From Felis catus (taxonomy: Eukaryota): a stretch of 64,000 nt of DNA. Positions 50,801-53,800 of the stretch are shown one piece after another; positions within the stretch are counted from its first letter, which is position 1, and every line of letters begins with the position of its first letter. A program made the translations under genes and the position numbers. Below the pieces are notes generated by a model, which was not told the DNA's origin, searched no databases, and saw only the letters and a list, made by a program, of their open reading frames with translations. The DNA is taken from assembly GCF_018350175.1 (NCBI RefSeq), contig NC_058382.1, positions 57,848,001-57,912,000 on the forward strand, in the 5' to 3' direction.

Positions 50801-53800
50801 CCTGGGTGCTCAGAGGCGGGGCTGTGAGCGCTGAGCGGCTAGATCAGGCCGGGATTAATCGTCCTGGGAGCCGGGGCTCTGAGAGCCGTCTGGGCAACGG
50901 GTGTTCACCCATGCTCACGTACACGCATCCGCGCTCACACACACGTGCACACTCACACTCCCGCAGACATGCACGGGCTCACACACACACACACACACAC
51001 ACACTCACTCCTAGAGGCCAGAGCACGTCACCACAGGGCGACGACCGCTACCTGAAGATCTGTGAGCTTCCGCTTCTGGAAGGCTTCAATCATCTCCCCC
51101 AGCTGGTGGGTGGTGTGGCTGGCATCCGCCGAGGCCCTCTGCACGCTGGTCTCTGCCTGGCTCCGGAGGTAGGAAGTGTCACGGGGTGGTTCTGGCCTTT
51201 GGACTTTTCTGGATCATTTTCAGGTCTTCCTCTGGGTCAGCTCCCTGCCTCACGGACGCCTCTCTCCAATTTGGTCATCGGAGGAAAGGCCGAGTGCGAC
51301 CGTGGTGAAAGGGGCAGGCGCCGCTCGGACAGACCTGCTGACTAGCTGCGTGACCCTGGGCAAGTCGCTAAACCTCTCTGAGCCTCACTTTCTCTGCCTG
51401 TAACAGGGGACGGTGATCACAGCGGCTTTGCATTAAACGGGGGGCACCTGCCGAGCTATCGTAACAGGTGCTGCACTGTCGATGATAATTAATTCCCGCA
51501 CGTGGAACATTCTTTAGGTAATTAGCTAATTTGTGTGACCTGGTCCCACGCCGGGCACGTGCAGACCTGGGTGTTGGTGCCAGGCACCCTCGGAGTGGAG
51601 TTCCACGACTGCCCCTTACCTCCCTGGTGTGACCTAAGGCAGGTCACGTCTTTCGGCCTTGGCTTCCTCATCTAGATGATGGCAGTGGGGCTACAAGTTA
51701 GAAGTGCCCCCAGCCCACTGCTGGCCCCGCACCTCTGACTCGCATCCTGAGCCCAGGGCTGTGCACACACCTGCGCAGGTAAAGGTTCACCTGGCTCTTT
51801 GGGGAGGTCGTCCGTCACCTGCACGGGGCTCGGCCTTGCCCAGACACACGCGGGGCACTCACCTGGGACTGGGGAGGGTGCTGTTAAGGAGCCAGGTGAG
51901 TCGGCAGCCCCTGCCCAGAGGACGCCTGTGACCGACGCCCCGTGTGGCCCGGCAGCCTCGGGCCCACGGCCCAGGGAAGGATACAATCGTTAGCCGATCC
52001 GACGGTGACTTCTGCCTCAGTTTCCCCAGCTTTGCCAGTTGCTTGATCTCGTTCTTCTGGACTTGCTTTAGCTTCTTGATCTCGGCCTAAAGGAGGGAGG
52101 AGGGCTGCGTCTTGCATGTCCAGATGGGCCACTCCCGGTCGGGCGGTGCCCCCCCCCCCCCATCAAGCTTACCCGAGTCTGCTTGATGTGGGCCCCGTAG
52201 AGTTTCAGGGGGCTGATGACCTTGGTCTCCAGCCTCTCGACCTGGGGGAGTGTGGACAGGCAGAGAGTCAGAGCGGACAGAACCGGGGAGGCTTGGCGGC
52301 TGCACGGATAGAGCGCCGCGGGCACACCCGTGGGTGGGCGCGTGGCAGGAGCCCGTGGGGGGCTGTGGACGCCTGGGACGCGGTCCCTCGTCCCTTAGGG
52401 TTGTGAGCGCCGCCTGAGCTCAGGGCTCGACCTCCCAAAGGCTCCGGCAGCACATTTCATCCCACGAGCCTTGTTTCCTCACCTGTGAAATGGGTATAAT
52501 GACTGTGCCCACTGAGGGTTTCGTGACAGTTCACTGGGACCCGTGGCTCTTTCAGTTCTCCAGCCTGCCTCACGATCTCACACGGGAAGCCCAGAAGAGC
52601 AGGGGATTCAGACCCGACTGAGCCAAGTGCGCTGTGCAGCCCCCGAGGGCACAGCATGGTCTTGGGGTGGATGCCTCACAGCCCCGAGTCAGTGCCTAAC
52701 TGCCAGGTGAAGGTGTCCCCCGACCCCTTCCCCCACAGGCTCCTTAAGACCCTGATTGCCAGGCACCGCCCCCAGGGGTGCTGACTCAGCGGGTTCTCAG
52801 TGAGGCCCAGGAACCTGCATTTCTAGCAAATTCCCCGGTGAGGCCGATGCCTTGACGCCCAGTGGCCTGAAAATTTGGCCTGCCGGATGGGAGTCCCGTC
52901 TTAGAATCCCCCCATGCCCGTTCCTTTTCCTTATCCTGTGGGATAAACACAAATCTAGAAGAAAAGATATGTTTTCCCAGGAGTCCAAAGGCAGAGGGAC
53001 TTTCCTCCTCGCTTTCCTTCCAGCATTTTCTTTTCAGAAAACCTGCGATGAGAAATCCTCTCTCTGTCCCTTTGGGACGTATGTAAACCTTTTTAGAAGC
53101 GTCGCAGCGCGGCTTCGGCCCTCAGACCTGACCCCCCCCCCCCACCCCCGCGAGGGATCCCCCCGGGGCCACCCTGCCTACCTCGGCCTGCCGGTAATCC
53201 TGGACTTTGGCCAGGTCCTCGGCGAAGCTCCTCAAGGTGGCCCGCATCTCGGGGTGCTCGGTGTTGGCGAAGTCGGTGAGCTGTTTGACCAGCCGGTCGG
53301 CCTTGTCCCGCACCTGGGCCGTCTTGCGGGTGTAGGCAGCCAGCATCGAGCAGAACTGGCCCAAGTGCTTCTCGGCGTTGGTCACCGTGTCCTCCATCAC
53401 CCTCACCTGGCTGTCCCTGGGGAGGTGGGGCCCGGGAGGCCGTTCTGGGCCCCGGTCGGGACAGCCACGCAGGGTCGCCCGCCTGCCACCCTGCGCCCGG
53501 TCAGGCGCCTGGTCCCTCCCTCCCGGTTCCATCGAGGCGGATTTGGGAGACCGGCCGGGCGGCAGGAATGCAAAGGCTGCTTTGGCTCCAAATCCAGTCT
53601 TAGCCTCCCTGGGACCCTGAGTGGGGTTTTCTATTCCTGGCAGAGTTATTCTTCTTCTCTTCCTAGCTGTGATGGCCCCTTCCTCCAAATCCCCTGAGTT
53701 TGCCTTTCCCCCCAGCTGTGGAAAGTCTCTCCTCTCTCCAAACCTTGAAGGTTTTTTTTTTTTTTTTAATGAATAAACTTTAGGGGCGCCTGGGTGGCTC

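Follow-up and report, generated by a model that had tools for sequence, protein, structure and literature searches.

A 64,000-nt stretch of the domestic cat genome (Felis catus, contig NC_058382.1, positions 57,848,001 to 57,912,000; here called the window, with positions counted from its first letter) carries on its minus strand a gene that, on the strength of its homology, we assign to felid CIBAR2 (FAM92B), a member of the CIBAR/FAM92 family of BAR-domain proteins. Intron 4 of this gene is very probably a U12-type GT-AG intron that corresponds to the minor intron of the FAM92B orthologues, shares its codon position with the minor intron of CIBAR1, and is followed directly by a microexon of only six nucleotides (TCCCAG). 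As judged from sequence and orthology, the intron is real, ordinary, and already known, as the cat counterpart of an intron catalogued in human and mouse. The six-base exon after it was missed by the initial annotation of this DNA, which had proposed the intron.

Several lines of homology support the assignment of the gene. A protein search with the reading frame of exon 4 returned 49 matches, all of them CIBAR2/FAM92B, and the felid proteins were 100% identical over the 34 residues encoded by this exon. Other exons were placed by tblastn with Felis catus CIBAR2 isoform X2 (P0006), and joining all nine gave a protein of 285 aa with 0 mismatches to that isoform, so the gene name in the initial annotation stands, as does its label "exon 4", because three exons precede it, starting with the coding start at 54471..54452. 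Homologous proteins bear PF06730, and the match to the solved BAR domain of CIBAR1 (8ceg) had an E value of 9.9e-65 over residues 6-217. Two exon peptides taken on their own (34 and 27 aa) were too short for a significant Pfam match.

On the minus strand, exon 4 ends in ...CGGCTAACGATT at 51985 and the intron opens at 51984 with GTATCCTTCC, such that the junction reads ...TCGGATCGGCTAACGATT/GTATCCTTCCCTGG... with the GT at 51984..51983. The opening bases GTATCCTT agree with the RTATCCTT 5′ splice-site pattern at 8/8 positions. Near the other end of the intron, the branch-site motif TCCTTAAC is followed by 12 C-rich bases (AGCACCCTCCCC) and then by an AG at 51870..51869 (context CCCCAG). Counting back from the last intron base, the second A of the motif is 15 nt away, which puts the branch A at about 15-16 nt before the 3′ splice site; for U12-type branch sites this distance is usually some 10-20 nt. 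Another AG stands straight after the branch motif (TCCTTAACAG); it would be too near the motif for use, and the next AG, at the usual spacing, would serve as the acceptor. From the end of the intron onward the sequence reads ...CTGGCTCCTTAACAGCACCCTCCCCAG/TCCCAG/GTGAGTGCC..., i.e., CCCCAG/TCCCAG/GTGAGT, which sets the microexon between the acceptor AG and a consensus U2-type donor. Hence, the donor, the branch site about 15 nt before a CAG, and the length of 116 nt that had been proposed for 51869..51984 are all present. Among the eight introns of the gene, U12-type signals were found in intron 4 only (splice-site table); the donors of the other seven are U2-like (GTGAGC, GTAGGC, GTAAGC, GTGAGT, GTAGCG, GTACAC, and GTGAGC).

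To gauge chance expectation, both motifs were counted on the two strands of the window. There was one occurrence of GTATCCTT (0.85 expected from shuffles) and there were three of TCCTTAAC (1.19 expected); each 8-mer, taken singly, is unremarkable in frequency. The paired signals nonetheless exceed chance. An ordered composite, in which the donor motif precedes a branch motif on its own strand and an AG comes 6-20 nt after the latter, was seen once in the real window, and in 1500 first-order Markov simulations of the window it arose in 19 (motifs ≤3000 nt apart) or 2 (≤200 nt apart). Moreover, the position of the donor coincides with an exon end that was set independently by protein homology.

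The criteria for minor GT-AG introns in the Minor Intron DataBase (MIDB) include a 5′ splice-site score >50, a branch-site score >65, and a minor 5′ splice-site position weight matrix score that is above the major one by a set margin (Olthof et al. 2019, PMC6717393). Letter for letter, the cat 5′ splice-site 12-mer (ATTGTATCCTTC) is that of the mouse Lmbr1l minor-intron entry (MIDB score 96.6), and the cat branch-site 12-mer (GGCTCCTTAACA) is that of the human PARP1 minor-intron entry (score 85.5), so that the cat scores are transferred by 12-mer identity. 

The orthologous introns are themselves catalogued. In the MIDB supplement (PMC6717393), Fam92b/FAM92B is a minor-intron gene with the status "Both" (mouse and human). 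Its 5′ splice site is ATCGTATCCTTC in both species (scores of 88.5 in mouse and 91.6 in human), and the branch sites are GAATCCTTAACA in mouse (82.3) and GGTTCCTTAACA in human (89.5). The mouse intron spans chr8:120171746-120171887 (142 nt) and the human intron chr16:85107673-85107845 (173 nt). The core signals GTATCCTTC and TCCTTAACA are kept across cat, human, and mouse; loss of this conservation had been named beforehand as a possible refutation. Identity of the 12-mers with catalogued minor sites and the minor status of both orthologues support the U12-type reading of the initial annotation, and its remark that the intron may already be catalogued was correct, given that both FAM92A and FAM92B are in MIDB for human and mouse. 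No entry for the cat intron was seen in the portions of the MIDB supplement files covered here (PMC6717393).

The paralogue Fam92a/FAM92A is listed as minor in the same supplement, with ATTGTATCCTTT as its 5′ splice site and introns of 2451 and 3000 nt (PMC6717393). At the junction, the 8ceg (CIBAR1) sequence ...SDRHVISQAETELQ... aligns with cat CIBAR2, and the CIBAR1 protein has the same ...VISQAET...; therefore, the minor intron follows the same Ile codon in both paralogues. Both genes are also marked isU12=TRUE in a ciliary gene list (Khatri et al. 2023, PMC9992838, supplements). In that study, retention of the CIBAR1 intron was 0.9 percent spliced in (PSI) in controls and 3.6 PSI in fibroblasts from Taybi-Linder syndrome (TALS), which is caused by RNU4ATAC mutations, and CIBAR2 was essentially unexpressed in the fibroblasts studied (0.14 and 0.10 transcripts per million; PMC9992838). 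A 2024 intron-taxonomy supplement (PMC11347168) classes the Fam92a intron as "minor" and responsive in 2/6 mouse U11-knockout data sets; a row for Fam92b was absent from the portion of it covered here. Likewise, no CIBAR/FAM92 entry was present in the portion covered of the supplement to the intronIC/IAOD paper, and in main-text literature we found no paper that names FAM92B alongside "minor intron", nor one that names CIBAR2 alongside "U12". Knowledge of the CIBAR2 minor intron is, in other words, held in supplementary tables and databases.

The evidence for the microexon comes from the cat protein, from mouse annotation, and from homologous proteins. After ...ACGATT, the cat protein continues Ser-Gln-Ala-Glu-Thr, and the exon encoding AETSVQ... 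opens at 51156 after ...GGAGCCAG. A gene model from which TCCCAG is omitted fails to reproduce Felis catus CIBAR2 isoform X2, which identifies TCCCAG as the source of the Ser-Gln. MicroExonator (Parada et al. 2021, PMC7821500, file 2) gives a 6-nt TCCCAG as annotated in mouse Fam92b (ENSMUST00000048786, chr8:120171739-120171745), where it directly adjoins the MIDB minor intron starting at chr8:120171746, and an annotated 6-nt TCGCAG in mouse Fam92a (chr4:12165765-12165771) that adjoins the minor intron of that gene. The mouse Fam92b microexon is placed in the "Included" cluster (PMC7821500).

We classified 128 CIBAR2 proteins by their residues at the position of the microexon. Ser-Gln (SQ) followed by the next exon was found in 95 of these, and a variant dipeptide ending in Q in another four. 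Four models read SQ-VS.., having been translated into GTGAGT (two panda isoforms, pangolin, and marmot), and five, from lion, panda, gundi, ground squirrel, and python, read I-VSF or I-VSL, the translation running on through the donor GTATCCTT, in keeping with its conservation in orthologues. In two, SQ was followed by something else (tiger isoform X2 and a lemur isoform); seven were classed as other, including Lycaon with TQ-VSAP into GTGAGT, and the region was not visible in one. The cat reading frame, if it ran on through the microexon, is homologous to the panda SQVSAPGLSG. SQ was also present in all eight examined proteins from Logan contigs of 1.0-1.5 kb, which are taken as spliced transcripts, since a gene of ~9.7 kb could not fit into that length with its introns. 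In tiger isoform X2, SQ is followed by GADPEED, which corresponds to an alternative acceptor near 51245 (..GTGAGGCAG/GGAGCTGAC, minus strand); since the six bases before this acceptor code for RQ, the SQ of the tiger isoform must derive from the microexon. In the cat, reading the extension from the ~51245 acceptor in the frame of the microexon leads, by eye, to a TGA ahead of exon 6, and a cat equivalent of tiger X2 would therefore be truncated.

In a wider set of 109 family representatives (≥220 aa), a dipeptide occupies the slot in 59 (12 SQ, 13 other-Q, and 34 other), the region is lacking in 14, and 12 have insertions, of which four start with VS. The distribution of these sequences indicates that, at the protein level, the two-residue slot is old. 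Our guess, from alignment to 8ceg, is that Ser-Gln may lie at the start of the third helix of the BAR fold. Some CIBAR2 proteins replace it with VS (Odocoileus, P0116), AS (Dugong, P0106), VQ (Loxodonta, P0127), or GQ (Bos, P0078). These could be real variants of the microexon or cases in which annotation misplaced the six bases; VS, for example, could represent GTATCC taken as exon. Just upstream of the start of exon 6, AGCCAG (51160-51165, minus strand) likewise codes for Ser-Gln, and lemur isoform P0120 reads SQSQAET, which suggests that an acceptor six bases upstream of exon 6 may be used in some species. AGCCAG as the source of the cat SQ was rejected, as it would need a non-AG acceptor (..CCGG/AG).

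Some observations weigh against the proposed arrangement or narrow what can be claimed for it. Both mouse microexon rows are marked "RESCUED" with a summed coverage of 0, and hence represent annotation and not read evidence (PMC7821500). The dipeptide is missing (..I-AETS..) in 10 of the 128 CIBAR2 models and in 24 of the 109 family representatives, and models without SQ could be real microexon-skipping isoforms instead of annotation misses. The 10 in CIBAR2 are mostly projection or ab initio models, and we regard them as likely annotation misses. The scores transferred to the cat splice sites are of the minor type only, and the bases separating the branch site from the acceptor (AGCACCCTCCCCAG) are rich in C, such that absence of a polypyrimidine tract cannot be cleanly claimed. 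Reliance of cat CIBAR2 on U11, U12, U4atac, and U6atac is something we infer from sequence and orthology, and in the literature supplements searched, as far as they were covered, we found minor-spliceosome perturbation data for the paralogue only and none for CIBAR2 itself.

These points bear on three other ways of reading the region. Were TCCCAG no exon at all, a single minor intron of 828 nt would run from the donor at 51984 to the exon 6 acceptor at 51157, and Ser-Gln would come from elsewhere or be absent. The SQ-less models would fit such an intron, as would AGCCAG, with its own Ser-Gln codons, directly before GCAGAG at the exon 6 acceptor, and a weak branch-site-like CTTCCTACC 13-20 nt before that acceptor. 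However, TTCCTACC agrees with TCCTTAAC at only 5/8 positions, the projection and ab initio methods behind most of the SQ-less models commonly miss 6-nt exons, the mouse TCCCAG is annotated exactly at the end of a 142-nt minor intron, and the human counterpart of that intron measures 173 nt instead of ~800. Moreover, the dipeptide followed by VS.. from GTGAGT in panda, pangolin, marmot, and Lycaon is possible only if TCCCAG is joined to exon 4, and in tiger X2 the SQ precedes a different downstream acceptor. An undivided 828-nt intron is thus highly improbable, although a form that skips TCCCAG may occur as a minor isoform. Related to this is the view that the microexon is included alternatively, with minor-spliceosome activity setting the ratio of CIBAR2 with and without SQ and not acting as a simple on/off switch. 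SQ-less models in several species and alternative splicing around the minor intron of mouse Fam92a (PMC6717393, file 6, CAT4 and CAT9) are in its favor, but SQ in every examined protein from transcript-sized contigs and the "Included" cluster of the mouse exon are not, and we consider it unlikely.

It could also be asked whether the resemblance to U12-type signals is incidental and the major (U2-type) spliceosome removes intron 4. In favor of this are the GT-AG termini, the abundance of pyrimidines in the 14 nt before the acceptor, and the fact that each 8-mer singly is at about its chance frequency. The consensus for U1 is CAG/GTRAGT, and by eye the donor ATT/GTATCC shares with it only the GT, position +3, and the degenerate position -3. 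By contrast, neither U12 motif has a mismatch, their spacing is correct, human and mouse retain both, and the composite seldom arises by chance; MIDB classes the orthologous introns as minor, and the Fam92a intron at the same position is "minor" and responsive to U11 loss. Removal of intron 4 by the major spliceosome is accordingly a reading to which we give hardly any credence.

With a U12-type intron 4 and a 6-nt exon as the preferred reading, splicing could proceed as follows. The U11/U12 di-small nuclear ribonucleoprotein (di-snRNP) would bind GTATCCTT and TCCTTAAC together over the short intron (intron definition), ZRSR2 would read the CAG 15 nt past the branch site, and the U4atac/U6atac.U5 tri-snRNP would finish catalysis, joining exon 4 to TCCCAG, while the major spliceosome would remove the 706-nt intron 5 from the CAG/GTGAGT donor. 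If the minor intron left first, exon 4 and the microexon would together make up a normal exon of 108 nt that ends at a perfect U1 site; if the U2-type intron left first, the microexon and exon 6 would form a 111-nt exon behind a U12 acceptor. By translation, retention of intron 4 shifts the frame and brings a stop after 41 codons (the TGA inside GGTGAG), and functional protein would therefore require minor splicing. The initial annotation proposed that the minor spliceosome limits how much CIBAR2 is made, with sensitivity to U4atac/U6atac or ZRSR2 perturbation; for CIBAR2 this is a prediction along lines that are standard for this class of introns.

In both CIBAR paralogues, the U12 3′ splice site and the U2-type 5′ splice site would be 6 nt apart. 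This gap is too short for the usual cross-exon contacts between spliceosomes, and the two sites are probably too close for simultaneous occupancy. Tentatively, the microexon might be defined through intron definition of the minor intron, such that the minor and the major intron would have to leave in a set order or would compete with each other. The juxtaposition of minor intron, 6-nt exon, and major intron was not described in the literature searched, where its parts are annotated separately; the one paper listed under both microexons and FAM92 concerns circadian disruption in mice, and the covered parts of two reviews on both topics make no link between microexons and U12 introns.

The coordinates of the gene model and of the intron signals are collected in Table 1. 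G runs are present just inside intron 3 (~52150-52165, minus strand), where GTAAGCTTGATGGGGGGGGGGGG directly follows the exon 3 donor and the intron is only 86 nt long, and in intron 2 (~53140-53160, minus strand), where GGGGGTGGGGGGGGGGGG follows exon 2. Intronic G runs close to donors are splicing enhancers. Intron 1 holds a tRNA-like element in antisense orientation (53788-53873, plus strand; Rfam tRNA 30.2 bits against a threshold of 29), called by ARAGORN as an 86-nt tRNA-Gln (TTG), which may be a short interspersed nuclear element or a tRNA pseudogene and not a working gene. Elsewhere in the window, weak tblastn noise matches marked an open frame at 25490-25603 (plus strand), possibly an exon of a neighboring gene, and a simple repeat coding for RE/GR at 838-921 (plus strand), near the window start.

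Table 1. Coordinates of the gene assigned to CIBAR2 and of the predicted signals of its fourth intron (window positions).
Feature	Position	Strand	Basis
CIBAR2 coding span, 9 coding exons and 8 introns	44792..54471	-	start-codon pattern, spliced translation
Exon 1, coding start	54471-54452	-	degenerate pattern for first seven residues
Exon 2	53416-53182	-	nine-exon model
Exon 3, 69 nt	52241-52173	-	tblastn, model; 86-nt U2-type intron before exon 4
Exon 4, 102 nt, residues 109-142 (...SPSDRLTI), phase 0 end at ACGATT	51985..52086	-	tblastn 100% identity
Predicted U12-type GT-AG intron 4, 116 nt, 72% G+C	51869..51984	-	sequence, splice-site table, human/mouse orthologues catalogued minor
Predicted U12-type 5′ splice site GTATCCTT, 12-mer context ATT/GTATCCTTC	51977..51984	-	sequence
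Predicted U12-type branch-point sequence TCCTTAAC, 12-mer GGCTCCTTAACA	51883..51890	-	sequence
CAG acceptor of predicted U12-type intron	51869..51871	-	sequence, splice-site table
Predicted microexon 5, 6 nt, TCCCAG, Ser143-Gln144	51863..51868	-	nine-exon model, mouse annotation
U2-type intron 5, 706 nt, donor CAG/GTGAGT, acceptor ...GAGCCAG/GCA	51157..51862	-	sequence, model
Exon 6, 105 nt (AETSVQ...TDLQ)	51052..51156	-	tblastn, model
Exon 7	47897-47784	-	nine-exon model
Exon 8	45793-45692	-	nine-exon model
Exon 9	44896-44792	-	nine-exon model

The call of a U12-type intron adds little in itself, as CIBAR1 and CIBAR2 are already among the minor-intron ciliary genes, a link that has been used for ciliopathy traits in RNU4ATAC disease. 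The tissues that express CIBAR2 are lung and testis and not brain (PMC6717393, file 2). The sole addition is the microexon between a minor and a major intron, which is common to both paralogues and annotated in mouse. In practice, the finding matters to gene annotation: a cat gene model must include the U12-type intron as well as the 6-nt exon, one or other of which pipelines often lose (10/128 models without the dipeptide and 5 running into the intron). This arrangement could also offer a compact natural test case for two spliceosomes without room for exon definition. If the juxtaposition works as tentatively proposed, inclusion of two BAR-domain residues, or the whole frame, would directly report how active the minor spliceosome is in ciliated cells.

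Compared with known systems, cat CIBAR2 is closest to human FAM92B/CIBAR2 and mouse Fam92b, which share the gene, codon position, core signals, GT-AG subtype, and short intron; the cat gene differs from them at exon position -1 (T, where they have C) and ahead of the branch-site core (GGC, where they have GGT/GAA), and its intron is the shortest of the three (116 against 173 and 142 nt). FAM92A/CIBAR1 likewise has a minor intron after the same Ile codon (ATT/GTATCCTT) and then a 6-nt Ser-Gln microexon (TCGCAG in mouse), but its intron is far longer (2.4-3.0 kb against 116-173 nt), its branch site is weaker (TTTTCCTTTATG, score 73.2), and it has been studied under perturbation (TALS fibroblasts and U11 knockout). 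Mouse Lmbr1l and human PARP1, typical U12-type GT-AG introns with a 5′ splice-site and a branch-site 12-mer, respectively, identical to those of the cat, belong to unrelated genes. Like other vertebrate microexons (≤30 nt), the CIBAR2 exon is in frame, conserved, and easily lost by annotation. The neuronal microexon class is U2-type and SRRM4-dependent; unlike it, the 6-nt exon of CIBAR2 follows a probably U12-type intron whose strong branch site and acceptor are 15 nt apart, in a gene of lung and testis.

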